Assembly (NCBI RefSeq): GCF_030525845.1
Contig: NZ_JAUNDY010000003.1
Coordinates: 72,552-136,551 of the forward strand
Reading direction: 5' to 3'
Source of the DNA: Moraxella sp.
GTDB lineage: Bacteria; Pseudomonadota; Gammaproteobacteria; Pseudomonadales; Moraxellaceae
DNA: 64,000 bases
In this document: positions 18,362 to 62,003 of the stretch, one piece after another
Layout of the letters: each line of letters begins with the position of its first letter
Numbering within the stretch: position 1 is the stretch's first letter
The notes under the pieces: generated by a model
The model's database searches: none
What the model was told of the DNA's origin: nothing
The model's input: the letters and a program-made list of their open reading frames with translations, nothing else
Position numbers and translations under genes: made by a program

Positions 18362-18384
18362 TAATATTACTCACTTTTAAATAA

Positions 18385-18741
18385 TCAACTCTCTTTTTCT
18401 TTTAGTCGATTTGCCAATCTCTCCATACAATCCATTAACAAATCCCTATCACTTTCAGACAAATCTGCTAACAAATTTTCAATCCTGCGACTGTGGTCAT
18501 TGATACGCACACTCCCACCACCAAGCAAATCAGATGCAGAACAACCAAAAATCTCCGCCAATTCCAATAGGCGAGCCACATTGGGCATAATTAGCCCCCT
18601 TTCCATTCGTGAAACCGTTTCGTTCCCCAATTGCAATAGCTCCGCTAGCTTTTCTTGGGTGTAGCCATTTTGTTGACGATACTTGGCAATCGTTTTACCA
18701 ATTAGCTTATTGGTCTCTTGATAGTTAATAGTTGTATACAT
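18385..18741 (-). CDS. XRE-family helix-turn-helix transcriptional regulator
   Basis: 'GYTQEKLAELLQLGNETVSRMERG' HTH_3 motif; 118 aa; immediately upstream of the membrane-protein gene. Confidence 0.7.
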   Translation of the reverse strand: MYTTINYQETNKLIGKTIAKYRQQNGYTQEKLAELLQLGNETVSRMERGLIMPNVARLLELAEIFGCSASDLLGGGSVRINDHSRRIENLLADLSESDRDLLMDCMERLANRLKEKES

Positions 18742-18878
18742 CTTAATTCCACTTCTTATGTTGAAATTGATATATATTTCAACATTTTAAGTAGATTTTT
18801 AAGGGATTTAAAAGTTGAATACTAGGCTTTTTAAGTTGAATTTTGTAAAATATCCAAAAATTTTCACGGAGCTATTCT

Positions 18879-19184
18879 ATGGGCAAAATTTCTGCTGTAA
18901 TCATATTGGTAATTGCTTTGTTTTCTTGGCAACAATTTAAGGAAAATTCAAATAAAAACAATGAGTTATATAATGAAACACACAATGAGCCAGTTGTACC
19001 AACCACCAATAAACAACAAATATTTTCCAACACCAACCAAAGTCAATTCCGCTGTGATGGGCGAACACATTGCTCACAGATGACTTCTTGTGCGGAAGCC
19101 ACTTTCTTTATCAATAACTGCCCAAACACCAAAATGGACGGCAATAAAGACGGTATTCCTTGTGAAAAACAATGGTGCAAATAA
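18879..19184 (+). CDS. Secreted Excalibur (extracellular Ca-binding) domain protein
   Basis: N-terminal signal/TM; C-terminal 'DGNKDGIPCE' DxDxDGxxCE Excalibur motif. Confidence 0.6.
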   Translation: MGKISAVIILVIALFSWQQFKENSNKNNELYNETHNEPVVPTTNKQQIFSNTNQSQFRCDGRTHCSQMTSCAEATFFINNCPNTKMDGNKDGIPCEKQWCK

Positions 19185-19285
19185 ACAATTATGCTTAGTC
19201 AATCCCAAAAAATACCAAATAAAAAACACCATTTTCCCATTTAAATAAAAAATGGTGTTTTGTTTGCTACCAAATACAATTTATC

Positions 19286-35198: not shown

Positions 35199-35675
35199 TT
35201 AGGGTTGATTGCCCATTTCCACCAAAAATGCCTGCAACTGCATCAAATCTTGCTCGATCACTGTCATGGCATGTTCATCTCTGACCGAAAAACTTTTGAC
35301 ATACGGCTCATCTTGCCAATAAATCGTAACACAGTTTGCCTTTGACATGACCCCTTTAATGTAAGCCTCACAAAACTTAGGAGGCAAGATGTCTGATACA
35401 GCATCGCCCTGCCACGCACCATCTGTCCACACTAAATACCGTGCAGGCAACCGCCATTCATCATTGATGAGGGTGTATTGGGCTATCATGCCACCTTTAT
35501 CCGCCACCCCGACAAGCCAGTCAGGTATGGGTACAAGTTTGGGGTTTAGGTCTAATTTGCGAGCAAACAACCTCATGTCGCCGACACGCACCTCGCTTGC
35601 CTTTGGCTTTAAGCCCATGATGTTGCCAATCACAAACAAGATGGCAGCAACGACCACCAATGTGCTAATGCTCAT
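35199..35675 (-). CDS. Hypothetical membrane-anchored protein
   Basis: 158 aa; N-terminal TM then a soluble domain; 4-bp overlap with the upstream receiver gene. Confidence 0.4.
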   Translation of the reverse strand: MSISTLVVVAAILFVIGNIMGLKPKASEVRVGDMRLFARKLDLNPKLVPIPDWLVGVADKGGMIAQYTLINDEWRLPARYLVWTDGAWQGDAVSDILPPKFCEAYIKGVMSKANCVTIYWQDEPYVKSFSVRDEHAMTVIEQDLMQLQAFLVEMGNQP

Positions 35676-36061
35676 AAAGAACGGTTTTTGGATTTTTTGG
35701 CAAGCTCTGCCAGTTTTTTGATGGCATTTACAAGCTTCTCATCAGAAAATGGCTTATAAATAAACCCCCTAGCCCCAGCTTGTAAGGCTTGCAAGGCCGT
35801 CATGCGATCAGACATCGCCGATACCACCAAAATATTCACATCGTCCTTTTTAGCAACGATACGCTTAATACATTCTAATCCATCCATCTGTGGCATGACC
35901 AAATCCATGATGATGAGCTTTGGACGGTACTGCTCATACTTTAACACTGCGTCCGCTCCGTTATTGGCTATCGCCACCACCTCAATATTCGTCTCTTCAA
36001 AACAGCGTTCGATGCGATTACAAATCACACTCGAATCATCTACAATCATCAATTCATTCAT
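35672..36061 (-). CDS. CheY-like single-domain response regulator (receiver only)
   Basis: 'MIVDDSSV', 'IIMDLVMPQMDG', 'VSAMS', 'YKPF' receiver motifs; 129 aa. Confidence 0.85.
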   Translation of the reverse strand: MNELMIVDDSSVICNRIERCFEETNIEVVAIANNGADAVLKYEQYRPKLIIMDLVMPQMDGLECIKRIVAKKDDVNILVVSAMSDRMTALQALQAGARGFIYKPFSDEKLVNAIKKLAELAKKSKNRSL

Positions 36062-36085
36062 AACTTTCTCTATGCTTATTGGGTC

Positions 36086-38182
36086 TTATTCTGGATTAAA
36101 ATTCAGGGTGATTTTGGTGCTCATGCCACGATTGCTATCTACTTGCACCTTGCCCTCCATCTCTTTTACCCACTCACGCACCACATCCATGCCTACACCA
36201 CGTCCAGCATCTTCACTAAGCGTCTTGGCGGTGGAGAGTCCAGAGCGGAAAATCAGCGGATATAGTTTGCTGTCAGGTACATTTGCCAATGCCTCAGCGG
36301 TTGCCATGCCAAGTTCCACCGCTTTTTGACGCAAAGCATCTACGTCCACGCCTGCCCCATCGTCCATGATACTCATACGAAGCTGATTGCCATAGTTAGC
36401 CAACATAAGTGTGATTTGCCCCACTGGGTTTTTGCCGACCTGTCTTCTACCCTCAGGTGTCTCGATACCGTGTGCGATGGCATTTTTAAGAAGCTGAATG
36501 CCCACATCTTGACAAAACTTCATCGCCTTTTCGCTCATGGCAATCTCGTCAAATCCTGTAACGTTTAAGGTTACTTGCTTGCCTTGGCGTGTGGCGACCT
36601 GCTGGGCGTAGTCAGCAAAATAAGCCGTCCATGGTGCTTGCGATGTTGGTACTTCTGTTGCTTGCTGGGTGTTATCCACAAATGTATCAACCCCAGCAAA
36701 ACCCTCTGTCTGCACTTGATTTTGAGCTTGACCGACATTGGCTAGGCGATCAAGCAGTTTTTCAACAAATTGGGTCAAATCCAAAACATCATTTAAGACC
36801 ACCGCAAAACCCAAAAAGTCCTGCCCCACCACCGTATTTTGTTTGCGTAAAATTGCAAGTTCGGTTTCGCCTTTTTCGGCAAGTTTGACAAAGCTTTCCA
36901 TCTTGATGGCAGATGCCTCGCCTTTTAGGGCATGCATTTTACGAAGCAGGGTCTGGGCTTTATTGTGTAGCTGTCCTTCGTTACGCAAAATCTCATTCAT
37001 CTCATCGACACGCTCATAGGTACTGGCAATGAAGCGATTGAGCAGATGAACATCAATATTGAGAATATGCCCCATCATCTCCATCTGGCGGTCATGCTGG
37101 GCTTTTTCGCTCTCCAAGGTTTTTTCAAGTACGGCAGAGTCGGTTACATCAACCACGTTGACAAAGATTTGTTTGGCATCATCTTCTTCATCTTCGTGTA
37201 CCCTTAAAAAGCTAAATGACAAATATTTAACGATGGGTTCGCCCTCTTCACTCAAAAAGCCCACACGCACCTTTTTGAGTGGGTTTAGGTCATCAATCAA
37301 CTCTGACACCACCCATGGATTATGCAGCTGCTCAATAAACAGCTTAGTTTCAGCAAGTTCCTGCGAGCCAATCATGTCTTTTAGCAAATCAAGTAACGTC
37401 CTACCTGCAATATCATGACGACACAAAATCGTCTCTAAGTTTTTGGAATACGACTCTGCCACCACAAAATTTCTGTCAATCAAGAATAGACCTTCTTGTA
37501 CTGTATCCAAGATATTGGCAGTTTGGCGACGTGCTTGCCTAATAGCATCATCAGACTGTCCGATTTTTTTGAGGAAATAAAAGAAAAACCACGAAATATA
37601 CAAAAACATCAAAATCACACCGATAATCAATGTGGATTTAGCAAATTTCGCCCAATACTCACTCTTGTTTAGTTGATTGTTCCAAATTTCATCAAAGAGT
37701 GTATACAGCTGATTCTTGTCCTCATAAATAGATTTCGCCAAAGCAGTGACGTCGCTATCTGCACTCAATGCACTTAGTTGTTTTTCATAATTTTTATCCC
37801 AAGATTTGATTTTTTGGTAGTTGGCAACATCCTCTTCATCTTCTAGCTTAATGATGGATAAGATACTACCATCATCATAATAATAATCTCCACCAGTACC
37901 AAACAGCTCAATGTACTTATCAATAGCTCGATGACTGGTAATGACTTCGTTCATCGCTATTTTTTTCTCTTCTGGGGTTTGAGCGATTTGCCATCTTTGA
38001 GTGTGTAGATTGAGATTATAAAACTCATCACTGAGTTTGCCGATGCCATCATTGATATTGGTATAATACAAGGACTGATGAGTGGCGTAGTAATTTAACC
38101 CAAGCAAAGTTGTGATTAGCACCACAAAGATAATTAACGAAAAAAATAGGTTTTTATATCTAGAATGTAATAAGCCACCCAT
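36086..38182 (-). CDS. Membrane sensor kinase with periplasmic sensor domain, Hpt (CheA-P1-like) and HATPase_c domains; lacks HisKA/DHp and CheW domains
   Basis: TM1 at ~aa 12-30 and TM2 at ~aa 176-196; 'MHALKGEASAIKMESF' Hpt His motif; C-terminal G1/G2 ATPase boxes 'DDGAGVD...GRGVGMDVV'. Confidence 0.75.
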   Translation of the reverse strand: MGGLLHSRYKNLFFSLIIFVVLITTLLGLNYYATHQSLYYTNINDGIGKLSDEFYNLNLHTQRWQIAQTPEEKKIAMNEVITSHRAIDKYIELFGTGGDYYYDDGSILSIIKLEDEEDVANYQKIKSWDKNYEKQLSALSADSDVTALAKSIYEDKNQLYTLFDEIWNNQLNKSEYWAKFAKSTLIIGVILMFLYISWFFFYFLKKIGQSDDAIRQARRQTANILDTVQEGLFLIDRNFVVAESYSKNLETILCRHDIAGRTLLDLLKDMIGSQELAETKLFIEQLHNPWVVSELIDDLNPLKKVRVGFLSEEGEPIVKYLSFSFLRVHEDEEDDAKQIFVNVVDVTDSAVLEKTLESEKAQHDRQMEMMGHILNIDVHLLNRFIASTYERVDEMNEILRNEGQLHNKAQTLLRKMHALKGEASAIKMESFVKLAEKGETELAILRKQNTVVGQDFLGFAVVLNDVLDLTQFVEKLLDRLANVGQAQNQVQTEGFAGVDTFVDNTQQATEVPTSQAPWTAYFADYAQQVATRQGKQVTLNVTGFDEIAMSEKAMKFCQDVGIQLLKNAIAHGIETPEGRRQVGKNPVGQITLMLANYGNQLRMSIMDDGAGVDVDALRQKAVELGMATAEALANVPDSKLYPLIFRSGLSTAKTLSEDAGRGVGMDVVREWVKEMEGKVQVDSNRGMSTKITLNFNPE

Positions 38183-38350: not shown

Positions 38351-38378
38351 TAAAAACAGCCCAATGATTTGGGCTGCT
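38351..38378 (-). terminator. Rho-independent terminator after the Roadblock gene (minus strand)
   Basis: cagcccaa-tgat-ttgggctg stem with TTTTT on the minus strand; separates the GTPase unit from the kinase unit. Confidence 0.55.
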
Positions 38379-38470
38379 TACAAAATGCCTAACGGTTAAA
38401 ATGACCATGCACAGAGACGATGACCATTTTAAAATTTGGAGTGTATTTGCCGTGCTGGTTATGTGGTTTC

Positions 38471-38911
38471 TTATTTGCCGTGATACAAGCCGTCAAGCTC
38501 GACCAAACGAGCAGTAGCTTTATTCATGGCATGCATGATTTGACCAAGCAGCACTTGCTGTCTTGTAACCACAATCAAAATCATTGGCTGGTTGGCATTA
38601 GGCACAGAACCAATCATGATTTTACCATTTTCGGCATCTAAAATCACAGAACGGCAACCTGTCAACTGAGCCTCACTCGTCAAGGCCTGCACCAATGCCA
38701 AAATGGATGAGCCAACTGCCGAGAGCTTATTACCATCATAATTTTTTTGAAAAATGGACGACACTTCAAAACCATCTGACGATGCCAAAAGTACGCCATC
38801 TACACCAGCGGTCGAATGCACCAACTCATGCAAGACTTCTTTTGAGATGGTAATAAACTGTTCGGCAGGCTTAACACGATTAGAATCCAACTTAAAGGGA
38901 CTAAGACTCAT
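38471..38911 (-). CDS. Roadblock/LC7 domain protein (MglB/CvnB-like)
   Basis: 146 aa; 'GVDGVLLASSDGFEVSS' Roadblock core. Confidence 0.75.
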   Translation of the reverse strand: MSLSPFKLDSNRVKPAEQFITISKEVLHELVHSTAGVDGVLLASSDGFEVSSIFQKNYDGNKLSAVGSSILALVQALTSEAQLTGCRSVILDAENGKIMIGSVPNANQPMILIVVTRQQVLLGQIMHAMNKATARLVELDGLYHGK

Positions 38912-38959
38912 TAATTTGCTCCAATATTTTTTATAAAATCATTTGGGTTGCTGCGAGGT

Positions 38960-39484
38960 TTATACCTGCTCCAAGCTTGCAATGATACTCTCAACAAGCA
39001 ACAACACATCTTCACGCTTACGCATGTCCACAGGAAATAGCGGTAAATTGCGTCCAATGCTCGCCAAATAATCACGATAGATAGAAAATTCACGCTCAGG
39101 CTTTTTATCCACTTGACTAATGCCTAGTACAATGCGTCCCTCATAAATACCATCAAAGGTTTTTAGGTAGTGTGCCAAATCTGCCACAGGGTCTTGGGCA
39201 GAGTGGTCAATTAAAATCACAACCCCCAAAGCACCTTGTGAGAGAATGGGCCAAATGAAATTAAAGCGTTCTTGTCCCGGTGTGCCATACAGCCCAATAC
39301 TCGCCCCACCCTCAATGATAAGCTCGCCATAATCCATGCCAACCGTTGTGAGCAATTTGGCATTGGTATCAAGGTCGGTATTCATGACCTCTGTGGATAC
39401 CACAGGAATGTCAGACAAACTAGAGATGGCTTGGGTCTTACCTGCACCCATTGGACCGCTAAACACAATTTTTAAACGTTGCAT
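38960..39484 (-). CDS. Ras-like small GTPase (MglA/CvnD-like)
   Basis: 174 aa; P-loop 'GPMGAGKT', switch-II 'GTPGQERF'; no canonical NKxD. Confidence 0.75.
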   Translation of the reverse strand: MQRLKIVFSGPMGAGKTQAISSLSDIPVVSTEVMNTDLDTNAKLLTTVGMDYGELIIEGGASIGLYGTPGQERFNFIWPILSQGALGVVILIDHSAQDPVADLAHYLKTFDGIYEGRIVLGISQVDKKPEREFSIYRDYLASIGRNLPLFPVDMRKREDVLLLVESIIASLEQV

Positions 39485-39554
39485 AATGCTACCTAAATGA
39501 TTTGATGTATTTTATTACAAAAAGCGTGAATATTCAATGCGGAAGACGCACCAA

Positions 39555-40625
39555 TCATATCCCCAGTTTACGGCGTAAACGTGCCAAAAAGCCTAATTTT
39601 TCTTCTTGCTCAGCACTTTGTGGCACAGGTACGCCCTCTGGCTCTGGCACGCTAGACGATGAAGCACTTGGCGTAGATGCAATCACAGGCGTGATGACCG
39701 CTGTGATGACTTGATAGTTCTCATCACTAAGATGTTGAGCAAACAACAAAGACACCACTACTTTTTGGACAAATAAGCGACTAAGCCCCGTACGTGCCAC
39801 CAGCTCATCTATCGTGCGAGCTTTATCTTCTAGTGCCACCATTGCACGCAATAGAGGACGTCTTTCGGTGTTGTTGTCGGGTTTTACCCACGAACGAAGC
39901 TGATAGCGAGCATCTTTATCTACAAGAGGCAGTAGTTTATCAGCATTTTCCCATGCCACCTGATAAAGCCACTGATTCATGTCAATGGCACGACTGGGTT
40001 CGTCTGGTGTACCGCCCATACGAAGTCGCCATGCCGTAACATCAACCGTCTGCATACTCTTTAACCACACCAACTGACGTGAACCGTCAATAACAGCAAT
40101 TACTTCGCCGTCTTGCAGAAGTTCGAAGTTGGCTTTTGGGCGAGCGTGCAGCGTCTTTATCATCTCTATCACATCAGACAATTCGGTACTTGATGAGATG
40201 GGCTTTGGCTGTGCTGCTGCTGAGGGTCGCACAGGCTCAGATGCGGTGCTAGCAGGTGTCTTTTGGTAAGGTATGCCTTTTAGGACATTGACATTATCAT
40301 GCAGCCAATTATTTAACAGTCCAATTTGTTTTAGGGGCAACACCAATACATCACCTACAATGCGACCGTCACCCATTTCACTGCGACTGACGTACAGGGT
40401 AGGTGTGTTTGGATGCGCTTCTTGCAGTTTTTGTATGCTGGTAGAATTTCTAAAATCCTCATTAACCACATACAAATCCACACGACCAACCTGAACAGAC
40501 ACCCAGTCCAAATCGACATCTAAGCGAAGAAGTACTCGCAAATACCCCTTAAAGGTAACTTGGTCGGCGGGACTGACGCCAACCATTGCAATCTTCATGA
40601 TTTTCTTACTGTCAATATTTTCCAT
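39555..40625 (-). CDS. Hypothetical protein: degenerate receiver-like N-terminus, Pro/Ser/Ala-rich linker, conserved C-terminal domain
   Basis: 356 aa; 'KIAMVGVSPADQ...DLYVVNEDF' resembles a receiver fold lacking the acidic pocket; 'TPASTASEPVRPSAAAQPKP' linker. Confidence 0.4.
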   Translation of the reverse strand: MENIDSKKIMKIAMVGVSPADQVTFKGYLRVLLRLDVDLDWVSVQVGRVDLYVVNEDFRNSTSIQKLQEAHPNTPTLYVSRSEMGDGRIVGDVLVLPLKQIGLLNNWLHDNVNVLKGIPYQKTPASTASEPVRPSAAAQPKPISSSTELSDVIEMIKTLHARPKANFELLQDGEVIAVIDGSRQLVWLKSMQTVDVTAWRLRMGGTPDEPSRAIDMNQWLYQVAWENADKLLPLVDKDARYQLRSWVKPDNNTERRPLLRAMVALEDKARTIDELVARTGLSRLFVQKVVVSLLFAQHLSDENYQVITAVITPVIASTPSASSSSVPEPEGVPVPQSAEQEEKLGFLARLRRKLGI

Positions 40626-40937
40626 AGCTTACTCTTGGCTCGCTTAAAAATCGCCGATGTCAAAATCACAAACCAAGACACCAGCACTTAAAAATCACAA
40701 ACTCATCATTTCACAAGCAAGCCACTCATCAACAACCAACAAGTGACTCATAATGACACACACGGCAAAACCAACCGCTCACAAATCTCAAAAACAGGAC
40801 ATAGTCTGTTATCTGTACTATTTTATACCATATTTGGGTTTACGGCTATACCAAACAACAAAAAGATTTTACCTTTTAGTAACATTTTTAAATACTTACA
40901 AATAGTATGGATATAAATTAAGGGTGCAAAACACCCA

Positions 40938-50445: not shown

Positions 50446-51564
50446 TTACAAAAACTCGTCTACGCCATCTAAGACTTGTTGTAATGTCGCCATTTCAAAA
50501 TCCTTAGTAACAAATGCCTGACCAAGTTTTTTGAGCAATACCAAACGAATATTACCCTGCTGAACTTTTTTGTCATGACCCATCAAATCAAGTGCCACCG
50601 ATGGCTCAATCACAGGGGGCTTGACTGGCAAATCAAATAATTGCAAAAGCTTAATCACACGCAAGACATCATGATGGGCAATCAATCCAAGCTTATGCGA
50701 CATGACCATCGCTTGCACCATGCCTACTGACACCGCCTCCCCATGTAGCCAGTTGCCGTAACCCATGTGCGTTTCGATGACATGACCAAAGGTATGTCCA
50801 AAATTAAGCAAAGCACGCATGCCTGACTCACGCTCATCACTAGCGACAATTCTCGCCTTAAAATCACAGCACTGATACACCATCTCACTCAGCGTCTTAT
50901 GATCTCTTGCGTTGATTTTATCGGCGTGATTTTCAAGCCACGCCAAAAACTCTTCATCAAAAATCAGTGCGTATTTTACCACTTCTGCCATGCCTGCTGC
51001 AAATTCTCTATCAGGCAAAGTATCGAAAGTCCGCATATCCGCCAACACGCACACAGGTTGCCAAAACGCCCCTATCATGTTTTTACCCAATGAGTGATTA
51101 ATGCCTGTCTTACCGCCTACGCTAGAATCCACCTGTGCCAGCAAGGTGGTCGGCACCTGAATGAAGCTTACCCCACGCATAAAACTAGCCGCTGCGAATC
51201 CTGTCATATCGCCAATCACACCACCGCCTAGCGCAATGAGCGTGCAATCTCTGGCAAAATGATGCTCCATTAAAACGTCATAAATGACATTAATACTGTC
51301 TTGGTTTTTGTATTGTTCGCCATCAGGCAAAATACAGCTGACCGCCACTAAATCCGACTTTTTCAGCCTTACCATCAAATTTTCCAAATACAAAGGAGCG
51401 ATGGTGTCGTTGGTAACAACCAGAACCTGCTTACCCTTAATAAAAGGCAAAATCGACCCCGCCAAATCTAACTGAGCAATATCTAGCGATGGGCTTGCAC
51501 CGATAAAAATTGGATAATCATGACTTTGGGTGCTGACAGTCAATGTGTGGTTAATCTGCGTCAT
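50446..51564 (-). CDS. aroB: 3-dehydroquinate synthase
   Basis: 372 aa; NAD-binding 'GGGVIGDMTGFAAA'; metal-binding His residues. Confidence 0.9.
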   Translation of the reverse strand: MTQINHTLTVSTQSHDYPIFIGASPSLDIAQLDLAGSILPFIKGKQVLVVTNDTIAPLYLENLMVRLKKSDLVAVSCILPDGEQYKNQDSINVIYDVLMEHHFARDCTLIALGGGVIGDMTGFAAASFMRGVSFIQVPTTLLAQVDSSVGGKTGINHSLGKNMIGAFWQPVCVLADMRTFDTLPDREFAAGMAEVVKYALIFDEEFLAWLENHADKINARDHKTLSEMVYQCCDFKARIVASDERESGMRALLNFGHTFGHVIETHMGYGNWLHGEAVSVGMVQAMVMSHKLGLIAHHDVLRVIKLLQLFDLPVKPPVIEPSVALDLMGHDKKVQQGNIRLVLLKKLGQAFVTKDFEMATLQQVLDGVDEFL

Positions 51565-51578
51565 GTTTATATTCTCGT

Positions 51579-52184
51579 TTATGGTTGTGGAGTTTTAGCA
51601 TCTTTGGCATAAGCAATCAAAACATCTAATATCTCACTCATCATTTGCTTGGGGTACGCCTTTCCCGTGGGAATAACAATATCCGCCACCTCCCTATATA
51701 AAGGAAGTCGCCTCTGATACAACGTCTCTAAGACAGTTTTTGGGTTTTCTGTTTGGAGTAAGGGGCGATTTTTGTCTTTTTTGGTGCGAGCAAGCTGAGT
51801 CTCCACGCTGGCATCAAGAAAAATTACCAGCCCATGTTTTAGGTATTCACGATTACACGCCCTTTCTACCACGCCACCGCCCGTCGCTAGCACAATGCCA
51901 GACATGGAGGATAACTCTTCCATAGCACGGCTTTCACGCTCACGAAATCCTGCTTCGCCCTCTTTTTCAAAAATCCACGGAATGTCCGCTCCCGCCTTTT
52001 CGCTGATATACCAATCAGCATCTACAAAAGGTCGTTTTAGATGTTTAGCGAGGAGCTTGCCAATGGTGGTCTTGCCAGAACCCATCGGTCCTACCAAGAA
52101 AATAGATGGCAATAAATGAGTATAATGATGAATGGGTTTTTCAACAAATATTTCTTCAATTACAGATACATCTTCTGATAACAT
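51579..52184 (-). CDS. aroK: Shikimate kinase
   Basis: 'FLVGPMGSGKTTIG' P-loop; ~25-aa N-terminal extension. Confidence 0.85.
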   Translation of the reverse strand: MLSEDVSVIEEIFVEKPIHHYTHLLPSIFLVGPMGSGKTTIGKLLAKHLKRPFVDADWYISEKAGADIPWIFEKEGEAGFRERESRAMEELSSMSGIVLATGGGVVERACNREYLKHGLVIFLDASVETQLARTKKDKNRPLLQTENPKTVLETLYQRRLPLYREVADIVIPTGKAYPKQMMSEILDVLIAYAKDAKTPQP

Positions 52185-52306
52185 AATTACATCACTAACA
52201 TAAATTGCTCTATCATACAGGTTTTGACCAATTATGGCTAGCGGTTTTTGTGATTTTTCAAAATAAAAAGCAGACCTAATGCCTGCTTTTTATGGATAAC
52301 CACTCG

Positions 52307-54412
52307 TTAGTAACGACCCACATTATCATTAACAATTCTTGGTGTTACAAAGATAAGTAGCTCTTCTTTGTTATTGGTTCTTGTGTCATTTCTGAACAAC
52401 TTGCCAACAGCAGGTAGATCGCCCAAGAAAGGCACCTTAGCCTGATTATTACCTACAATGTGCTTAAACACACCGCCTAACACCACAGTTTGACCATCTT
52501 CTAAGATGACGTTGGTATCCACCTCATCTTTGGTAAGAATTGGCACACCCAGTGCATAACGCCCAGATTCTTCTGCGTTGGTAATTTTCAATTCCAGACC
52601 AATTTTACCCTCTGGTGTGATGTTAGGCGTTACTTCTAGTGCTAGGGCAGCTTCCTTGAAGCTGACAGAAGTGGCACCACTGGCTGATGCTTCTTGATAA
52701 GGAATCTCAACACCTGAGGCGATTTTGGCTTTTTGCTTGTCCGCTGTCAGTACTTTTGGCGAGGAAATGATTTCACCGCGGTTATCCGCTTGCATGGCAG
52801 ATAATTCTAGTTGAAGTACTGTATTTGAGATATTTAACAATCCAAGAGAGATACCGCTGGTTGATGCGGCACCAACACCTAAGTCTACCGCATATCTAGA
52901 TTCGTCACCTTGATAATTAGCATTAAAGCCGTCCATACCCCTAATTCTCACACTAGGGTCAAGTCGAGAATTATTATGAAATACACCCCATCTTACACCA
53001 AGTTGTTTTGAGAAAACATCTGATGCTCTAACAATACGAGCCTCAATCATGACCTGTCTGACTGGAATGTCAATTTTCTCAATCATTTCACGAATGCTAG
53101 CGATACTCTCGGCAGTATCGTTAATGATAACGGTATTGGTACGACCATCAAATACTGCACTGCCACGAGGACTAAGTAATGATGAGCGACCATTATCTCT
53201 GCTACTACCACCGCTTGACTCTTTTAATAAGTCATGCAAGTCAGAAGCTTTGGCGTAATTTAGCTTAATGTACTCTTTACGTAGTGGTGCAAGCTCAGTT
53301 ACTTTCTTGGCGTCTTCTAGCTCTTTAATCTCTTGGGCAGCAAGTTCAGCAGCAGGAGCGACCAAGATAACGTTTTTATTCTTACGCTGACCTAAGTTTT
53401 TGCTCTTTAAGATGATGTCAAGAGCCTGATCCCATGGCACATTGATAAGTCTTAGTGTAATATTGCCTTGTACATTATCAGCAGCCACGATGTTGTTTTC
53501 GGTAAACTGACCCAAAACATCTAGTACCGTACGCACCGACACATCTTGGAATTCCATCGATAGTGGTTCGCCAGTATACACCTTTTCTTCAATGGTTGGC
53601 TCACGAAGCATTTTTGGTGGCAACACGGAGATGTTTAGCGTAGAACCAGACTGATAAGCCTGATATTCAAAGTCGCCTTTCATGTTAATGGTAATGATAC
53701 CACTTTGCCCCTGATTGACGGCATTAATGTCAGCCACTAAGCCACTACCATTAATACGTTTTAAAAGATGGCGTGGAATAGTTGTACCACTAGTACGCAC
53801 CACCAATTTATTGCCTTGACGCTGTACGTCCACAGGAATGGCTTCGTTGGTTAATGCAATCGTAATATTGCCGCCATTAGCATTGCCTGAATAATTAACC
53901 GCTGATACGCCGTCATAATTGGAAGCAAGGGAGGCAGAAGTTGGTGCAAGTAGTGGGTTTACCTTTACAGTCATGGTATCTGCCACGGGAACTGGGGAAG
54001 TACTTTGGCTAACCGATGGCAAAGCACCTTGCTTAATATTAATAACCAGGCTGTTGCCCTCAATAGTACTGGTATAACTTGCCGCATCTTTTAAATCAAT
54101 CATCAGGCGTGTCATAGAACCGTTATTTAGAGCAGTAACCTCATTAACCAAACCACGGTTAATTGGCATGCTTCTTGGCAGACCTTCGCTGCTGACTTGA
54201 TTAAAATCCAAAGCAAGCTGTCTACCGCCTGCTTGTTGATAGGCCACAGGTGTTACTGGCTGACCATCAAAAGCAACTTTAATCTGGGTAGTGTCAGCAC
54301 TAAGCTGGCTAGCTGATAGACCTCGAATAGCAAGAGCGTGAGCCTCGCTTGTCATCAAACCAATTGCCAACGCAGAATAAGCAAAGGCAGATTTTTTATT
54401 GAAAAAACTCAT
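52307..54412 (-). CDS. pilQ: Type IV pilus secretin PilQ
   Basis: 701 aa; AMIN/N-domains and C-terminal secretin domain. Confidence 0.9.
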   Translation of the reverse strand: MSFFNKKSAFAYSALAIGLMTSEAHALAIRGLSASQLSADTTQIKVAFDGQPVTPVAYQQAGGRQLALDFNQVSSEGLPRSMPINRGLVNEVTALNNGSMTRLMIDLKDAASYTSTIEGNSLVINIKQGALPSVSQSTSPVPVADTMTVKVNPLLAPTSASLASNYDGVSAVNYSGNANGGNITIALTNEAIPVDVQRQGNKLVVRTSGTTIPRHLLKRINGSGLVADINAVNQGQSGIITINMKGDFEYQAYQSGSTLNISVLPPKMLREPTIEEKVYTGEPLSMEFQDVSVRTVLDVLGQFTENNIVAADNVQGNITLRLINVPWDQALDIILKSKNLGQRKNKNVILVAPAAELAAQEIKELEDAKKVTELAPLRKEYIKLNYAKASDLHDLLKESSGGSSRDNGRSSLLSPRGSAVFDGRTNTVIINDTAESIASIREMIEKIDIPVRQVMIEARIVRASDVFSKQLGVRWGVFHNNSRLDPSVRIRGMDGFNANYQGDESRYAVDLGVGAASTSGISLGLLNISNTVLQLELSAMQADNRGEIISSPKVLTADKQKAKIASGVEIPYQEASASGATSVSFKEAALALEVTPNITPEGKIGLELKITNAEESGRYALGVPILTKDEVDTNVILEDGQTVVLGGVFKHIVGNNQAKVPFLGDLPAVGKLFRNDTRTNNKEELLIFVTPRIVNDNVGRY

Positions 54413-54441
54413 TTTTTTGTCCTCGATAAATCCAGTTGGCG

Positions 54442-54969
54442 TTAATTCGGTGATACTAAATTGGCAGCTTTTTCGATGTATTGCTCATCTACATCTTGAA
54501 TAATTTCAATCAAATTAATCTGTGTAGAGGTAATTTCAACAATACGCCCATGATTCTTACCTAGATAATTACCTACCTGTACGTCATGTACTCTCATGTC
54601 AGGTGTCTGAACCAAGCCGTACTCTTGACCATTTGGCGCAACAACCTTGCCACGATATACCAATTGAGTCAATTCATAAGCTTCAAGCGGCTCTTTTACA
54701 CGAGTCTCATCAGGCTTCACAGAAGGTGCTTGCTCAATTTTTCTTTGACGTTCAAGCAAACTCTTCGCCACAAAAGGACTACGAACATTCTGGGCGCCGT
54801 AGGTAAAGCCCTCAATTCTAAGAGGTTCTGGCGGCGCCGAGATGGGCTGAGCAGGCGATTTTTGAATCTTTTGCATTTCAGCTTCGGCAAGACTAACACG
54901 GTCAGTGCAACCCACCATCAACACACCCATAGCAAGGACACAAGATGTGATTTTAAGAGAATGCATCAT
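54442..54969 (-). CDS. pilP: Type IV pilus assembly lipoprotein PilP
   Basis: 'LMVGC' lipobox; 175 aa. Confidence 0.8.
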   Translation of the reverse strand: MMHSLKITSCVLAMGVLMVGCTDRVSLAEAEMQKIQKSPAQPISAPPEPLRIEGFTYGAQNVRSPFVAKSLLERQRKIEQAPSVKPDETRVKEPLEAYELTQLVYRGKVVAPNGQEYGLVQTPDMRVHDVQVGNYLGKNHGRIVEITSTQINLIEIIQDVDEQYIEKAANLVSPN

Positions 54970-55811
54970 TTCTTGCCTCCTTTGTCTTTTTTGTCATCTT
55001 TTTTGGGCGTTGCTGCCATTTCCTCCGAGCTCTTAGCGCGATAGGTCTTGGCTTGTATCACAAGTTGCAGTTCAGGCATTCTATCAAGCGAAGGTTGCGG
55101 ATTCTTAATCTCAAAATCATGCATGGTAATGATTCGAGGCAGTGCAGCTACACCACTCACAAATGAACCAAACTGATGATAATCGCCTAAGCCGATAATT
55201 TGGATTGGCTGTTCTATAAAGAACTCGTGCGTAATTTCAGCTTGCGTTGAGATATTCTGGAAGCGAACACCACTGCCACTACCCACCATGTTGATGTCAT
55301 CAACAAGCTCAGGAATACGCGTGTCTTTTGGCAACTGATTAAGCAGTTTTTCAAATTCAACTTGCATTTGAGCCACTTGCTCTTCGTAAGCCTGCAAATG
55401 GCGAGCCTTAGATTCTTTTTCTTTGTACTTTTCAAGCAAGACTGTTTGTTGGGCTTCTGCCGCTTTAATCTCATCAATCTTCTTAGAAATAAGCAAGAAC
55501 CATGCCAATGCTAAGATGAACGCCACAATCGCCACCAAGATAAAAATCTTTACTGGCACTGGCGCAGAACCATAGTTCTGACCATTAAGCGAGTTTACCT
55601 CTGCCATGAACTTTTTAAAATCAAAGGCGGGCTTTTTATTTTTTGGTGCTACTTTCTTGGCTTTGCTTTTAGCTTTTGGCTTGGACGAGCCACCAAAACC
55701 CTTGGGCTTAGACAGACTTGACTTGCCCAATTTGAGCTTCTTCCCACCCTCTTCTGGTGTAGCGGTCGTTGTCTCAGCGGCTGTTTTGGATTTTTTCAAT
55801 GAGAATTTCAT
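54966..55811 (-). CDS. pilO: Type IV pilus assembly protein PilO (with Lys-rich N-terminal extension)
   Basis: TM then PilO core; 4-bp overlaps with pilN and pilP. Confidence 0.8.
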   Translation of the reverse strand: MKFSLKKSKTAAETTTATPEEGGKKLKLGKSSLSKPKGFGGSSKPKAKSKAKKVAPKNKKPAFDFKKFMAEVNSLNGQNYGSAPVPVKIFILVAIVAFILALAWFLLISKKIDEIKAAEAQQTVLLEKYKEKESKARHLQAYEEQVAQMQVEFEKLLNQLPKDTRIPELVDDINMVGSGSGVRFQNISTQAEITHEFFIEQPIQIIGLGDYHQFGSFVSGVAALPRIITMHDFEIKNPQPSLDRMPELQLVIQAKTYRAKSSEEMAATPKKDDKKDKGGKK

Positions 55812-56668
55812 TGTTGACCTCCCGCTTGGGCATTACTGTTATCAACCACAGGTTGTGCGTCTTGTGGCGCTACTTGCTCGGTAACCGCAGCAGGTTGATT
55901 TGCACTAGCAGTCTCGCCTGCATTTGCTGGGGCAGGAGCAGGCGTATCCGCAGGTGCATTCTCAATGCCAATCGGTGCCACCTCTGGCATCTCTGCCACA
56001 TCTGTAATCGGAGGCAAGACAACATCTGCATCGCCACCAGTCTGAGACTTGGCTTTTTCTTCTTCAGTTTGTGGGTTTTGAACTTTGGTAACTACCACAA
56101 ACTCAACATAGCTGTCCTCAGGATAGATAGGGCGTGCCTTATCCGCATTTGCCTGCTTAGGAGCAATGTCTTGATATGCTTCAAGTCGACTCTTGATACT
56201 GGAAACCACCGAACCATCTAGCCATTCACTAGCGTTTAGGTTGCGTACCAAAGAAGCGACAACATTAGGGTTGGCAGCAAAACCTGTCAAAGTAATGGTG
56301 TCAGCATCTCTCTTGATGCTATTTAGATACATCGCTTCTGGCATGGCTCTTGCAATGTCGTCCCAAACACGCACAGGAATAGAACGGCGACCTTGTAGGT
56401 CTTGAACCACTTTCATCTGAGCAATCATTTGGTCGCGTTGAGCTTCTAACTCCTCAATGGATTTTAGTGCCACATCAAGCTGGGCATTAGCATCTTCAAT
56501 GCGCTTATTGGCATCTTGTTGGTTAGATAAATCCCTACCCAATAATGACAATGCCAACACAGTAACCAAGACCGCAACACCAGCTGTCGCTCCTGCAAGT
56601 AGGTTGAATTCCTTGTTCTTGCGTTCACGCTGTTCTTTGCGCCAAGGCAATAAGTTAATACGTGCCAT
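55808..56668 (-). CDS. pilN: Type IV pilus assembly protein PilN (with A/P/Q-rich C-terminal tail)
   Basis: 'MARINLLPWRKEQRERK' PilN N-terminus. Confidence 0.85.
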   Translation of the reverse strand: MARINLLPWRKEQRERKNKEFNLLAGATAGVAVLVTVLALSLLGRDLSNQQDANKRIEDANAQLDVALKSIEELEAQRDQMIAQMKVVQDLQGRRSIPVRVWDDIARAMPEAMYLNSIKRDADTITLTGFAANPNVVASLVRNLNASEWLDGSVVSSIKSRLEAYQDIAPKQANADKARPIYPEDSYVEFVVVTKVQNPQTEEEKAKSQTGGDADVVLPPITDVAEMPEVAPIGIENAPADTPAPAPANAGETASANQPAAVTEQVAPQDAQPVVDNSNAQAGGQQ

Positions 56669-57732
56669 TAGTCAAACCCCCTTAAAGCCAACCCACAAGC
56701 CCCCATCAGGCTCGGTGCGTCTTTTTGAAGCATGGTGGCATCAATACGTGAATCAATGGACATGCCCTCGAATGGATTTGCCACTGATACCATACCTCCA
56801 ACGCGTTGTTGCACCATCTGAGCAAGACCCGGCAGGGCAGACGTACCACCACATAATACAATATGGTCTACATTATTATACTCACTTGATGAGAAATAGA
56901 ACTGCAACGAACGGCTAATTTGCTGAACGATGTTTTCCATAAAAGGCATTAGCACACTTTCATGATAATCAGCTGGCAAGGTGTACTCATGCTTACCGAT
57001 GGTTGCATCATGATAAGGAATGCTATAACGAGCTTGAATTTCTTCGGTCAGCTGTGCACCGCCAAAACCTTGTTCGCGGCTATAAATAAATTCACCATCT
57101 TTGGCGATGTATAAAGTGGATTGCTTATGACCCAAATCAACCAAAGCCACCACCTGAGGGTCGTTTGGTAGATTATCTGTCATCAAGCTAAATGAACGCT
57201 CAATAGCATGAGATTCAATGTCCATTACCTTAGTGGTAAGACCGCCAAGTTGTAGTGTCTCAACACGCTGTTCTACGTTCTCAGAACGAGAAGCAGCAAG
57301 CAACACACGCACCAAATTAGGGGCGGCGGTTGATGGTCCTAACACCTCAAAGTCAATATTTACCTCAGAGAGCGGATAAGGAATGTATTGCTCAGCATCC
57401 AACTTAATCTGCGCTTCACGGTCAGAATCAGACATGTTATTTTCCATGTCAATAACTTTCGTGATGACCGCCGAACCAGACACCGCCGTTGCTGCGTCTT
57501 TTGAACCAGCACCTGAGCGTCTCACTAAGCGAGAAATAGCCTCGCCCACTTCTTCGGCGTTCACGATATTTTTATCAACAACCCAACCCGGCTCAAGTGG
57601 CTCAACGCCATAAGACTTCAAATGGAGTCTTCCTTGTTGCTTTGTCAGCTCAACAAGTTTAACAGAAGTGGTACTGACATCTAAGCCGATAAGATGCCGA
57701 CCCTTAGGAGAAAATAGCCCCACAGACTTCAT
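56668..57732 (-). CDS. pilM: Type IV pilus assembly ATPase-like protein PilM
   Basis: 354 aa, actin-like fold. Confidence 0.9.
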   Translation of the reverse strand: MKSVGLFSPKGRHLIGLDVSTTSVKLVELTKQQGRLHLKSYGVEPLEPGWVVDKNIVNAEEVGEAISRLVRRSGAGSKDAATAVSGSAVITKVIDMENNMSDSDREAQIKLDAEQYIPYPLSEVNIDFEVLGPSTAAPNLVRVLLAASRSENVEQRVETLQLGGLTTKVMDIESHAIERSFSLMTDNLPNDPQVVALVDLGHKQSTLYIAKDGEFIYSREQGFGGAQLTEEIQARYSIPYHDATIGKHEYTLPADYHESVLMPFMENIVQQISRSLQFYFSSSEYNNVDHIVLCGGTSALPGLAQMVQQRVGGMVSVANPFEGMSIDSRIDATMLQKDAPSLMGACGLALRGFD

Positions 57733-57962
57733 TCCTTATATTTTTGACCCAAACCAAACAAAAACAGCAATGTTTGGTTATAATAATGGTCCTCTTAAAG
57801 TACAATATGCTACCTTTTGCATGCCTGATAACACCAATTTAACAGTTTTGTTAACAGTTTTATCAGAAATCTGCTATACTTAGCGGTAATTTTAACATGA
57901 ATTTTATAAAATTACACATACTTTGTAACACATTCTTTACACAAAAGATATGATACAACATT

Positions 57963-60743
57963 TTGGCAACAATTTTAACCACTAGAAGTGCTATGTCTCA
58001 AAAAAATACCGCCGTTCGTCTGATTTCTTACCTAAAAAACCTAATTTTGGCAATTTTTGCCTTGATTTTAATCTTGGTGCTTGCCTTTCCTATCGGCTTT
58101 TATGGTATGGCAATGTATCTTGAACCGAGCTTGCCCGACATCAAAGATTTAAAACGCATGCCCCTAGAAATGCCCTTGCAAATCTACACAGCAGATAATA
58201 AGCTCATCGGTCAATACGGCAACCGATATTCTTTGCCTGTTGCCTATGAAGATATTCCAGAAACGATGATTCATGCGTTTTTGGCAGCAGAGGACGATAC
58301 CTTTTTTGAGCATAGCGGTATCAGCGTCAAGGGGCTTGGGCGTGCTATCACAGAAATCATTTCATCTGATGGTGGGCAAACAGGTGGTTCTAGCATCACT
58401 CAACAAGTCGCCAAAAACTACTTTTTGAGCCCAGAACAAACCTTTGAACGTAAACTCAATGAGCTTTTTATCTCTCGTAAAATCGAAAGCGAGATGTCCA
58501 AAAAAGAAATCATGACTTTATATGTCAATAAAATCTATCTTGGACAAGGGGCATACGGCATTCGAGCGGCCGCTAAACGATATTATAGTAAGTCGTTAAA
58601 TAACCTTACGGTTGCTGAGATGGCAATGCTCGCTGGACTTCCCAAAGCACCTTCTGATTTTAACCCTGTCGTCAATCCAAAACGTGCCATCGAGCGACGC
58701 AACTGGATTATTGGGCGTATGCTCAATGAAGGCTACATCACTCAGGCACAGCATGATGAAGCCATTAGTGCAGACATTGGGCTAAATATGTACCAAGAGA
58801 CGCTTGACCTAAATATGCCCTACATCGCTGAAATGGCTCGCTCATCACTGGTGCATAAATACGGCGAGCAAGTCATGCACAGTGGCTGGCGCGTACAACT
58901 TACCATTAATAGTGCTGACCAAATCAAAGCACGCCAATCGGTGCTACAAGGCATTTATAGTCATAACGCCTACACTAACACCAGCTATCGTGGCGTGGAA
59001 GCCTTGACGGGGGAATTGGGTTATTTTAAACCTTTTACTTTTGGCGAGGGTGAGAGATTTCCCAACATGCTCCCCGCTAAGGTGGTTGAAGTTAAAAAGG
59101 GTCAAATCAGAGCCGAGCTTCAATCAGGCGAGGTTGTCCGTGTCTTTATGAACATGAATTATGCAGGCAAAAAAGGTGGATTTGGCACCAACTTAGTCGC
59201 TGGCAAACGCTCCGACCTCAAACCCACTATTGAAGTTGGCAACATCATTCGTGTAACCAAGCGAGACAATAGCTGGTATGTGGCACAGCCACCACGCACG
59301 CAAGGGGCATTGGTTTCCATTAATCCCCAAAATGGTGCCTTAGAAGCTGTTGTAGGCGGTTTTCATTTTAACCAAAGTAAATTTAACCGTGCCACACAAG
59401 GCTATCGCCAACCGGGTTCTATCATCAAACCTTTGGTGTACTCTGCCACCTTTGAAAACACCAAACTAAGCCCATCAGATGCCATCTCTAACGAAGCCAT
59501 CAGCATCGGTGGCTGGAAACCCAAAAACGCAGGGGGTGGCTCTGGCGGTATGGTTAGTATTTCTGGGGCATTGGCACGTTCGCTAAACTTACCCTCCATT
59601 CGCATGATGCAAAAAGCTGGGGTTGAACAAACCAGAAGCATGCTCTCACAGTTTGGTCTAGAAAAAGACCGTCTGCCCGCCTCTCTTGCACTTGCCTTAG
59701 GTGCTGCTGATGCCACCCCCCTACAAATGGCAACCGCCTATGCTACTTTTGCCAATGGCGGACACCGCATTCAGCCCTACTTTATTGAGCGAATTTATGA
59801 TTTTGATAGCAACACCATTTTTCAAGCGAACCCCGCCCAAGCGTGTGCTGTCTGCTTTAATAAAGAACTTAGCAAAATCAACACCAAATTGCTAGATGGT
59901 TTTGGTTTTGAATCCTCATTGGACGATAAAGCAGATAAAAAAGCTGACGATGAATCTACTGACAAACAGACAGCTTCTGACAAAGAAGATGCCAAAGCCA
60001 AAAAATCCACCAAAAAGACCAAAGACAGCAAAGAAGTCGATGATGACACCAAAGAACCCCCAAAAACCAAAGACGACACCAAAACCATCATCACTCGTGG
60101 CAACGCTGCCCAAAAAGAACTTTTGGCACGTCAAGAGGCTTATCGCAAAGAACACCCAGAGCTTGATGCTGCCCCCATCTTTGACCGCCTAAATCCCAAG
60201 CAAGCTGTCCAATATGGCATTGCCGAGCAAGCACCTCGTATTTTATCAGTCAAGACCGCCAAATACATGTCTAGCATGCTAAAAGGCGTGATGACAGGTG
60301 GTACAGGTAGCAAGGGCAATTTCCGTTCTGATTTGGGCGGAAAAACAGGTACTACCAACCAAGCTCGTGATGTGTGGTTTGCTGGTATTCAGCGTAACCA
60401 TGTTGCGGTGGTCTGGGTCGGTTATGATGAACCTGCCTCGCTTGGTGCTAAGGCCTTTGGTGGCACACTCGCCATGCCGATTTGGGTGGATTATATGAGA
60501 TACCAACTCAAAAATGAGCCGATTGCATGGGTTGCTGATGGCAATATCGCCAAAACCAAAAAATCCACCCAAAAAATCATTGACATTACCAATGACAACG
60601 AGGCAGCCGCTCTTGATGAGTTAATTAAACAAGAAGCCGAAGATGCCCTGTCTGATGAAATCTTAGGCAAAAACGTGGACGTTGTCGAAAGTTCAGGCGA
60701 TGAAATTATCCCTGAGGGCGACGGCGAGGAAATTACCGATTAA
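57963..60743 (+). CDS. mrcA: Penicillin-binding protein 1A (bifunctional transglycosylase/transpeptidase)
   Basis: GT51 motifs 'EDDTFFEHSG'; TP 'SIIKP'; 'KTGTT'; K/D-rich insert near the C-terminus. Confidence 0.9.
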   Translation: MATILTTRSAMSQKNTAVRLISYLKNLILAIFALILILVLAFPIGFYGMAMYLEPSLPDIKDLKRMPLEMPLQIYTADNKLIGQYGNRYSLPVAYEDIPETMIHAFLAAEDDTFFEHSGISVKGLGRAITEIISSDGGQTGGSSITQQVAKNYFLSPEQTFERKLNELFISRKIESEMSKKEIMTLYVNKIYLGQGAYGIRAAAKRYYSKSLNNLTVAEMAMLAGLPKAPSDFNPVVNPKRAIERRNWIIGRMLNEGYITQAQHDEAISADIGLNMYQETLDLNMPYIAEMARSSLVHKYGEQVMHSGWRVQLTINSADQIKARQSVLQGIYSHNAYTNTSYRGVEALTGELGYFKPFTFGEGERFPNMLPAKVVEVKKGQIRAELQSGEVVRVFMNMNYAGKKGGFGTNLVAGKRSDLKPTIEVGNIIRVTKRDNSWYVAQPPRTQGALVSINPQNGALEAVVGGFHFNQSKFNRATQGYRQPGSIIKPLVYSATFENTKLSPSDAISNEAISIGGWKPKNAGGGSGGMVSISGALARSLNLPSIRMMQKAGVEQTRSMLSQFGLEKDRLPASLALALGAADATPLQMATAYATFANGGHRIQPYFIERIYDFDSNTIFQANPAQACAVCFNKELSKINTKLLDGFGFESSLDDKADKKADDESTDKQTASDKEDAKAKKSTKKTKDSKEVDDDTKEPPKTKDDTKTIITRGNAAQKELLARQEAYRKEHPELDAAPIFDRLNPKQAVQYGIAEQAPRILSVKTAKYMSSMLKGVMTGGTGSKGNFRSDLGGKTGTTNQARDVWFAGIQRNHVAVVWVGYDEPASLGAKAFGGTLAMPIWVDYMRYQLKNEPIAWVADGNIAKTKKSTQKIIDITNDNEAAALDELIKQEAEDALSDEILGKNVDVVESSGDEIIPEGDGEEITD

Positions 60744-61999: not shown

Positions 62000-62003
62000 A
62001 ACT

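Follow-up and report, generated by a model that had tools for sequence, protein, structure and literature searches.

The minus strand of a 64,000-nucleotide stretch of Moraxella sp. DNA (contig NZ_JAUNDY010000003.1; the stretch as a whole is referred to as the window) harbors, from position 40625 to 38471, three co-oriented genes which together form a small GTPase module. An earlier interpretation made from the sequence alone, in the following termed the sequence-only reading, had proposed genes for proteins of 174, 146 and 356 amino acids (aa) at 38471-40625, and the listing of open reading frames (ORFs) placed all three at exactly these positions. The first gene (39555..40625, minus strand) codes for a 356-aa protein, the equivalent of the 'DUF' of Group 3 MglA systems, which is referred to as the partner protein. 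It is followed by the gene of a 174-aa small Ras-like GTPase (38960..39484, minus strand), which is assigned to Group 3 of the MglA family by its match to Pfam ATP_bind_1 and its motifs, and by that of a 146-aa Roadblock/LC7 protein (38471..38911, minus strand; Pfam Robl_LC7), an MglB-type protein presumed to regulate the GTPase.

The gaps between the genes are short, 70 base pairs (bp) between partner and GTPase gene and 48 bp between GTPase and Roadblock gene, and a Shine-Dalgarno-like sequence is located in each. About 90 bp 3' of the Roadblock gene, within the 288-bp gap ahead of a kinase gene, lies the stronger of two terminator-like hairpins (38354..38379, minus strand), with an 11-bp stem (AAGCAGCCCAAA/TTTGGGCTGTTT) that is followed by a T-run (TTATTTTG); judging from its position and sequence, it is probably the 3' end of the three-gene unit. 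The second hairpin (GGGTGTTTTGCACCC, followed by a T-rich tail; 40922..40936, minus strand) is located after the upstream DUF4230 gene and probably constitutes the 5' boundary, and an AT-rich spacer of about 300 bp precedes the start of the partner gene. As terminator-like hairpins flank the genes and the gaps between them are short and equipped with Shine-Dalgarno-like sequences, the three genes look like one transcription unit. The GTPase is 96% identical to that of Moraxella bovis, and a database search with it returned 691 proteins at E <= 0.001; among the best 120 of the 691, which were considered for identity, every one is at least 76% identical. This degree of conservation indicates real genes rather than chance ORFs. 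The entire neighborhood of the module is syntenic in M. bovis genomes, and the host is a close relative of M. bovis. PADLOC models did not match any of the three module proteins, by which a role in anti-phage defense was ruled out.

GTPase and Roadblock protein of a Group 3 MglA system

The GTPase scored 34.4 bits against Pfam ATP_bind_1 (cut-off 27) and, among the Pfam and NCBIfam models, gave weaker, sub-threshold matches to Roc, Ras and small_GTP, while models of Era, EngA/Der and Obg from both collections were not matched. The possibility that the protein is a fragment of such a housekeeping GTPase was thus ruled out, as the sequence-only reading had expected. The P-loop GPMGAGKT (G1) and the switch II motif GTPGQERF to which that reading had pointed are present, and the NKxD box is indeed missing, its place being taken by a degenerate G4, SQVD (family consensus T-x-x-D), which retains the final Asp. 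G2 contains T46-T47, with Thr where an intrinsic Arg finger would stand, G3 is GTPGQ (G67-T-P-G-Q71) and G5 is DMR. Across 49 GTPase homologues, T46, T47, G67, P69, G70, Q71 and, within G5, D153 are at least 90% conserved, and R155 of G5 is invariant. The 146-aa protein, similarly, had been proposed to be a Roadblock/LC7 protein, which is confirmed by a score of 32.2 bits against Pfam Robl_LC7 (cut-off 23) and by sequence matches to the solved Roadblock proteins 9jue, 7f8m and Streptomyces CvnB5 (3leq, E 3.9e-4) in the PDB. Its Asp46-Gly47 pair is invariant in 21 homologues.

In 2014, Wuichet & Søgaard-Andersen divided the prokaryotic MglA family into five groups (PMC4316618). In this study, Group 3 is described as nearly restricted to beta- and gammaproteobacteria, with the gene order unknown protein > MglA > one or two MglB. 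The GTPases of Groups 2-5 have a Thr in G2 which replaces the Arg finger of Group 1, and GTPGQ as G3; those of Groups 2 and 3 have a G4 without the Lys of [NT]KxD and a DAR-type G5 with a conserved Arg, and the MglB partners of Groups 2-5 bear an Asp-Gly pair. The unknown protein of Group 3 possesses conserved N- and C-terminal regions with a variable linker between them, for which Phyre2 predicted receiver-like and winged-helix-turn-helix (HTH)-like folds. The module of the window displays the corresponding order of co-oriented genes (356 > 174 > 146 aa), T46-T47 and GTPGQ at 67-71 in G2 and G3, SQVD and DMR with R155 in G4 and G5, D46-G47 in the Roadblock protein, and a partner without a Pfam match that combines a receiver-like N-terminus with a variable linker and a winged HTH.

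The phyletic position of the GTPase points in the same direction. In a neighbor-joining tree of the GTPases from about 80 loci, which was built without reference sequences labeled by the 2014 authors, so that the placement is indirect, the window GTPase groups with those of Moraxella and Acinetobacter. All GTPases with an adjacent partner gene, including those of the window, Neisseria and Snodgrassella, are located on one, proteobacterial side of the tree, and the conservon loci of Streptomyces and Amycolatopsis and the Chloroflexi-type loci on the opposite side; the window GTPase thus falls with beta- and gammaproteobacterial sequences, apart from actinobacterial Group 2. The underlying scan, carried out on one genome per species with a query alignment of 13 GTPase sequences, returned 80 loci, and in 27 of these, all beta- or gammaproteobacterial, the GTPase gene is directly preceded by that of a partner homologue; in nearly all cases, one or two Roadblock genes come next. 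Taken together, eight of eight Group 3 features tested were found in the module. We are highly confident, as far as homology and gene order can tell, that it is an instance of the published Group 3 MglA operon, a computationally defined family, and that no new category is required. In combination with the mechanism proposed below, in which the module acts as a switch on a membrane platform, the assignment is held with more reserve and considered moderately probable.

The suggestion of the sequence-only reading that the set is an MglA/MglB-type or conservon-like module holds for its first half, an MglA/MglB-family GTPase and Roadblock pair; its second half does not, as a CvnA-type kinase is lacking and the GTPase belongs to a separate clade. 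The assumption that such a module is not standard in Moraxellaceae has to be abandoned: the three-gene set is conserved across Moraxella, and the table of the 2014 study lists Acinetobacter calcoaceticus and A. oleivorans as 'DUF>MglA>MglB', in addition to Neisseria, Dichelobacter, Stenotrophomonas and Xanthomonas (PMC4316618). That reading had also considered that the set might already be widespread and annotated with a defined function. It is, in fact, published and widespread, but the source annotations of its relatives are 'GTP-binding protein' or 'hypothetical protein' and give no defined function. No experimental work on this module in Moraxellaceae was found in the literature.

Compared to the Group 3 loci of Neisseria and Snodgrassella, the module shares gene order, GTPase motifs, the Asp-Gly pair, the layout of the partner and a beta- or gammaproteobacterial host. 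It represents, like that of Acinetobacter, a sub-type with a single Roadblock gene, whereas Neisseria carries two Roadblock-type genes. In the sub-clade with two Roadblock genes (Thiotrichales, Methylococcales, Rhodocyclales and Neisseriaceae), an additional conserved gene, missing in the window, adjoins the start of the partner gene or overlaps with it (for example L010, 6110-6844; L013, 5844-6572; L031, 64-759; L022, 5418-6869; L017, 5378-6814). Its product is about 230-245 aa long, except in the loci of Neisseriaceae, where it reaches about 480-560 aa; in a Pfam scan of five of these proteins, three gave weak sub-threshold TPR matches and two no family, and homologues were identified in 6 to 11 of the scanned loci, depending on the query. 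No mention of this gene was found in the available portion of PMC4316618.

The partner protein

The 356-aa protein was not assigned to any Pfam or NCBIfam family, the only match being a sub-threshold one to DprA_WH, and those of its 167 homologues that bear a source name are all termed 'hypothetical protein'. An alignment and an AlphaFold2 model based on 48 homologues (mean predicted local distance difference test score, pLDDT, 82.6) indicated that two regions (residues 8-111 and 145-305) are folded, that two linkers are disordered and that a helix lies at the terminus (339-354). The first region (40293..40604, minus strand) is a degenerate, CheY-like receiver domain. It is connected by linker 1 (residues 112-144; 40194..40292, minus strand; pLDDT < 50 at 126-144), which differs in length and composition among the 48 homologues, to the second region (39711..40193, minus strand), an alpha-beta4-alpha2 subdomain followed by a winged HTH (about residues 255-305). 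Linker 2 (residues 306-338; 39612..39710, minus strand; pLDDT < 50 at 311-337) is variable to a degree that it cannot be aligned, and both linkers are of low complexity and rich in Pro, Ser, Thr and Ala. The sequence-only reading had described a degenerate receiver, a Pro/Ser/Ala-rich linker and a C-terminal domain, all of which were recovered, with two linkers instead of one. At the level of modeled folds, the receiver-like and winged-HTH-like predictions for this protein in the 2014 study are confirmed by independent methods.

The receiver fold is present although Pfam Response_reg is not matched. The window protein has Asn55 at the acceptor position and lacks the acidic pair that would follow beta1, while Lys99 is kept in the sequence LPLKQ; the fold of a response regulator is thus found, but not its residues. 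As the acceptor Asp is replaced and the acidic pair is gone, the window partner cannot be a normal phospho-acceptor. In partners of Moraxella and Acinetobacter, Asn or His replaces the Asp and the K-P motif is lacking, whereas many other Group 3 lineages, among them Neisseria, Snodgrassella, Methylobacter and Leucothrix, retain the Asp at the end of beta3 as well as the K-P motif following beta5. Most lineages lack the acidic pair after beta1 in their partner receivers. Judged by these residues, the receiver is dead in Moraxellaceae and may still be live in other lineages.

At the very C-terminus, following linker 2, a cationic amphipathic helix (EEKLGFLARLRRKLGI, residues 339-356; 39558..39611, minus strand) is proposed, from its conservation and the modeled helix at 339-354, to target the protein to the membrane. 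Residues F346, L347, K353 and L354 are invariant in the 48 homologues, and equivalent tails occur, among others, in Neisseria (GLLQRLMRKLL), Leucothrix (GLFSRLLKRLIGG), Acinetobacter (SFFGKLRKKLGI), Snodgrassella, Methylobacter and Stenotrophomonas. The motif of the tail is G-[FL]-[FL]-x-[RK]-L-x-[RK]-[RK]-L. An amphipathic tail is kept in 36 of 36 homologues; its median hydrophobic moment of 0.66 ranks at the 99th percentile of the values along the same protein, and its median net charge is +4. The tail is thus predicted to be, probably, the membrane anchor of the partner. We take it to resemble the helices at the C-termini of MinD and FtsA, which target these proteins to the membrane and are likewise short, terminal, cationic and amphipathic and follow a flexible linker; the protein to which it is attached bears no relation to the ATPases MinD and FtsA, and its membrane binding is a prediction. 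No mention of the tail was found in those parts of the literature on the family that were available, and, together with the lineage-specific degeneracy of the receiver, this conserved tail appears to go beyond the 2014 description.

The C-terminal folded domain gave its best structural matches to Npr2/NPRL2 (NPRL2/3), subunits of GATOR1/SEACIT. A profile of the domain did not yield any significant hit among PDB sequences, the best being TFE (E 0.3). A Roadblock or longin fold was considered for the middle domain and rejected; the comparison with a Roadblock alignment by hhalign resulted in a probability of 0.1%. A transcriptional function is suggested in the 2014 study (PMC4316618). The partner would then be an atypical, response-regulator-like DNA binder with its winged helix placed on promoters, the GTPase, set by the Roadblock protein, would toggle binding, and the tail would sequester the inactive form at the membrane. 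The architecture of receiver and winged helix agrees with this idea, as do weak matches to HTH families of Pfam in up to 15 of the 48 homologues, and a module protein of Neisseria bound DNA in a South-western overlay. However, this Neisseria protein is the Roadblock-like component and not the winged-helix protein, and binding was without sequence specificity. In addition, no HTH family of Pfam is matched above threshold by the window protein, contacts between proteins are likewise made by winged helices, as is the case in NPRL2/3, to which the best structural matches were obtained, and a strictly conserved membrane-type tail is atypical for a transcription factor. A role as transcription module is, thus, regarded as rather unlikely.

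Neighboring kinase and pilus genes

Downstream of the module, a second unit on the same strand (35199..38182, minus strand; Pfam/NCBIfam domains), which is probably separate, comprises three genes. The first encodes a 698-aa membrane kinase (38182..36086, minus strand) with Hpt and HATPase_c domains, which is CheA-like but lacks HisKA and CheW. A 129-aa CheY-like response regulator (36061..35672, minus strand) is next, and the third gene (35675..35199, minus strand), whose start shares 4 bp with the stop of the regulator gene, codes for a protein of 158 aa with a hydrophobic N-terminus; topA comes afterwards. The 158-aa protein did not match any family in Pfam, NCBIfam or PADLOC. The trio is syntenic in M. 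bovis, where a 175-aa family-less gene is found in place of the 158-aa gene. In two other loci of the Moraxella group (L086, 9307-12715; L087, 9408-12856), the same slot is occupied by a non-homologous dCache-HisKA kinase with a regulator of 307-320 aa, and in a third, truncated one (L001, 4678-6347) by a dCache protein. The presence of two unrelated two-component pairs in one slot is odd. Among the 80 scanned loci, no relative of the window kinase was identified. When 98 proteins encoded around the module in the 27 loci with a partner gene were surveyed in a Pfam census, HATPase_c and Response_reg did not appear among the 25 families matched most often; PAS was found in 4 and CZB in 3 of the 98. 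A conserved link between module and kinase was considered and ruled out on these grounds: no relative in the 80 loci, an unrelated kinase in the other Moraxella-group loci and no enrichment in the census. As the two units are separated by a terminator and a 288-bp gap and a kinase or regulator is not consistently linked to the module in other loci, the kinase unit is probably a neighbor and not a component of the module. Sensor-type genes were also observed beside distant Group 3 modules, encoding a globin-domain protein, a protoglobin, a PAS protein and a PAS-rich histidine kinase (L021, 10956-11885; L010, 9763-10320; L031, 3609-4091; L042, 3727-7089).

These findings bear on the possibility that the module is part of a conservon-like sensory system in which the adjacent Hpt-HATPase kinase and the CheY-like regulator feed the GTPase-Roadblock pair, as CvnA does in the actinobacterial conservons (CvnA-D; MfpB, MfpC, MfpD). 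The kinase and regulator genes follow the module in the window as well as in M. bovis, a different pair is located at the same place in other Moraxella-group loci, and PAS, globin or CZB sensor proteins occur near some distant loci. The components themselves are similar, too: a CvnB-type Roadblock protein, matching CvnB5, and a CvnD-type GTPase are present, the latter being 33-34% identical to conservon GTPases of Streptomyces and Amycolatopsis with the same peculiarities in G4 and G5, and both systems have a third partner with a small, possibly HTH-like domain. On the other hand, a strong terminator-like hairpin and the 288-bp gap lie between the units, the two kinase/regulator pairs of Moraxella are non-homologous, the window kinase has no relative among the 80 loci, the 25 top neighbor families include neither HATPase_c nor Response_reg, and the receiver of the partner is devoid of the acceptor Asp. 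The defining sensor kinase of conservons, a CvnA encoded in the operon and ending in an LPxR motif, is not found, the window kinase ending in ...TLNFNPE. Similarity to DUF742, the CvnC family, is not significant: the partner protein of the window did not match it, weak matches in 5 of the 48 partner homologues occurred among many other HTH families (best E 0.0076), and hhalign of the partner against three CvnC sequences resulted in an E value of 0.039 and a probability of 1.3% over 27 HTH columns. As the GTPase moreover belongs to a different clade and the host to a different phylum, we consider a conservon-like input from the kinase very unlikely.

As a separate observation, loci of Actinomycetota and of the Chloroflexi type carry a gene of 230-440 aa just upstream of the GTPase gene, the product of which starts with MKLEGSxDAFxLPDxxQLL; in 4 of 5 loci (L065, 5580-6893; L067, 6678-7967; L079, 6802-7941; L076, 7243-7938; L050, 7127-7942), it is located between the Roadblock and the GTPase gene. 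This protein presumably resembles a DUF4388/PATAN-type domain and would, as a third partner, differ from both DUF742 and the Group 3 partner.

The sequence-only reading had further placed the module beside a type IV pilus region and considered a role in polarity or motility plausible. However, pilMNOPQ (52307-57732, Pfam) is located 11.7 kilobases (kb) from the module, with aroK, aroB, a tRNA, an ABC transporter, queF, proS and DUF4230, that is, housekeeping genes and a tRNA gene, in between. The region from 50446 to 60743 contains the order pilMNOPQ - aroK - aroB and a divergent gene for a class A penicillin-binding protein (57963-60743), as confirmed by Pfam. No pilus family occurs among the commonest neighbor families of the census, and a link to type IV pili by gene context was discarded on this basis. 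A role in motility or polarity is possible, but gene context does not lend support to it. The lowest G+C contents of the window, 0.359 and 0.370 compared to about 0.43-0.46 elsewhere, were found at 18001-20000 and 62001-64000.

In a further reading, the module would be a functional orthologue of the MglA/MglB/RomR polarity switch of Myxococcus and would set the pole or site of type IV pilus assembly in a twitching bacterium. Like the Group 1 systems of Myxococcus xanthus and Thermus (MglA-MglB with RomR-RomX), it consists of a Ras-like GTPase, a Roadblock dimer and a third protein with a receiver and a low-complexity linker, and pilMNOPQ is located in the same 64-kb window. Type IV pili are made by Neisseria, Dichelobacter, Acinetobacter, Xanthomonas and Moraxella, and the mglB phenotype of Snodgrassella described below also speaks for this possibility. 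In contrast, the marks of Group 1 GTPases, an intrinsic Arg finger beside the G2 Thr, TVPGQ as G3 and a canonical G4 according to PMC4316618, are missing: T46 occupies the site of the finger, G3 is GTPGQ and the degenerate G4 is SQVD instead of NKxD. The likeness of the partner to RomR, which had been proposed from the sequence, applies to the layout and could not be demonstrated beyond it. A bona fide receiver with an acceptor Asp, as in RomR, is not found (Response_reg unmatched, Asn55), the protein's C-terminal region holds a folded domain of the winged-helix type plus an amphipathic tail, and RomX is absent; the role of RomR-RomX as guanine nucleotide exchange factor (GEF) is itself now disputed. 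As pilus genes are located 11.7 kb away, no Pil family occurs among the 25 top neighbor families and a Neisseria NMB0478 mutant is normally piliated and competent, functional orthology to this switch is highly improbable.

Proposed mechanism and possible functions

By analogy to MglA/MglB and conservon proteins, the GTPase would alternate between GTP- and GDP-bound states. The Roadblock dimer would bind the GTPase and modulate exchange or hydrolysis, the part that MglB plays for MglA and that has been proposed for CvnB. The partner would, by the same analogy, complete the complex as its third member. We propose that its C-terminal helix would fix it to the inner membrane, where it may serve the pair of GTPase and Roadblock protein as a platform, recruiter or effector; phosphoryl groups would not be accepted by it in Moraxellaceae. 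Indirect data on what the switch might control come from other Group 3 organisms. In Snodgrassella, mglB genes have been reported to be beneficial for gut colonization, and a missense mutant in an orphan mglB formed motile flares on soft agar. In N. meningitidis, NMB0477, a 'GTP-binding protein', showed a 5-fold change with the iron-regulated small RNA NrrF, and NMB0478 was recovered from inner-membrane fractions, which is consistent with the predicted membrane anchoring. The start of NMB0478 derived from a primer, MESTLSLQ, agrees with that of a 213-aa product encoded immediately downstream of the GTPase in N. mucosa. The locus tags of N. meningitidis MC58 do not agree between sources: table S2 of the 2014 study names NMB0476 as the MglA homologue (PMC4316618), and in other publications (PMC5586341, PMC2885667) NMB0477 is a 'GTP-binding protein' (in a proteomics paper) and NMB0475 a putative 23S rRNA methyltransferase. 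From the indirect Snodgrassella data, a modulation of surface behavior or of type IV pili might be speculated to be the output, which is our leading guess.

Several observations weigh against this assignment and mechanism. The NMB0478 null mutant displayed wild-type aggregation, piliation and competence, which speaks against an essential part in pilus biogenesis. The confidence of AlphaFold2 in the tail is modest (pLDDT about 60), and its binding to the membrane is a prediction only. The roles as GTPase-activating protein, GEF or effector are extrapolated to Group 3 proteins from Groups 1 and 2, and the winged helix could signify DNA binding, as suggested by the 2014 authors (PMC4316618). Furthermore, in Psychrobacter frigidicola (L083/L084, 7247-9115), a GTPase gene (product 77% identical) and a Roadblock gene have a DUF4112 gene and not the partner as upstream neighbor, in a different context with ubiA upstream and a photolyase and trp genes downstream; as no partner gene adjoins this pair, linkage of the partner is not universal.

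The proposed membrane platform invites a comparison with the eukaryotic Rag GTPases and the Ragulator and GATOR1/SEACIT complexes, in which a small GTPase and Roadblock-fold proteins likewise operate on a membrane-anchored scaffold, and to which the structural match with Npr2/NPRL2 also points. There is, however, no sequence similarity, the match may cover the winged helix only, and partner and Roadblock profiles are not similar, so that the likeness is an analogy and not an established homology. It might be hypothesized that the partner, as a membrane-tethered scaffold with a MinD-like tail and an Npr2/NPRL2-related domain, forms with the Roadblock dimer a bacterial counterpart of Ragulator/GATOR which controls the GTPase at the inner membrane, with adjacent lineage-specific sensors as input (two-component pairs in Moraxella; PAS, globin or CZB proteins elsewhere). 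As the structural match may be restricted to the winged helix and profile similarity between partner and Roadblock protein is lacking, this hypothesis is regarded as quite improbable. The hosts of Group 3 systems include important pathogens and symbionts, such as Neisseria, Moraxella, Acinetobacter, Stenotrophomonas, Xanthomonas, Dichelobacter and Snodgrassella. If the idea of a membrane platform is true, the logic by which small GTPases and Roadblock proteins operate on platforms of the Rag/Ragulator type would extend to bacterial membranes.

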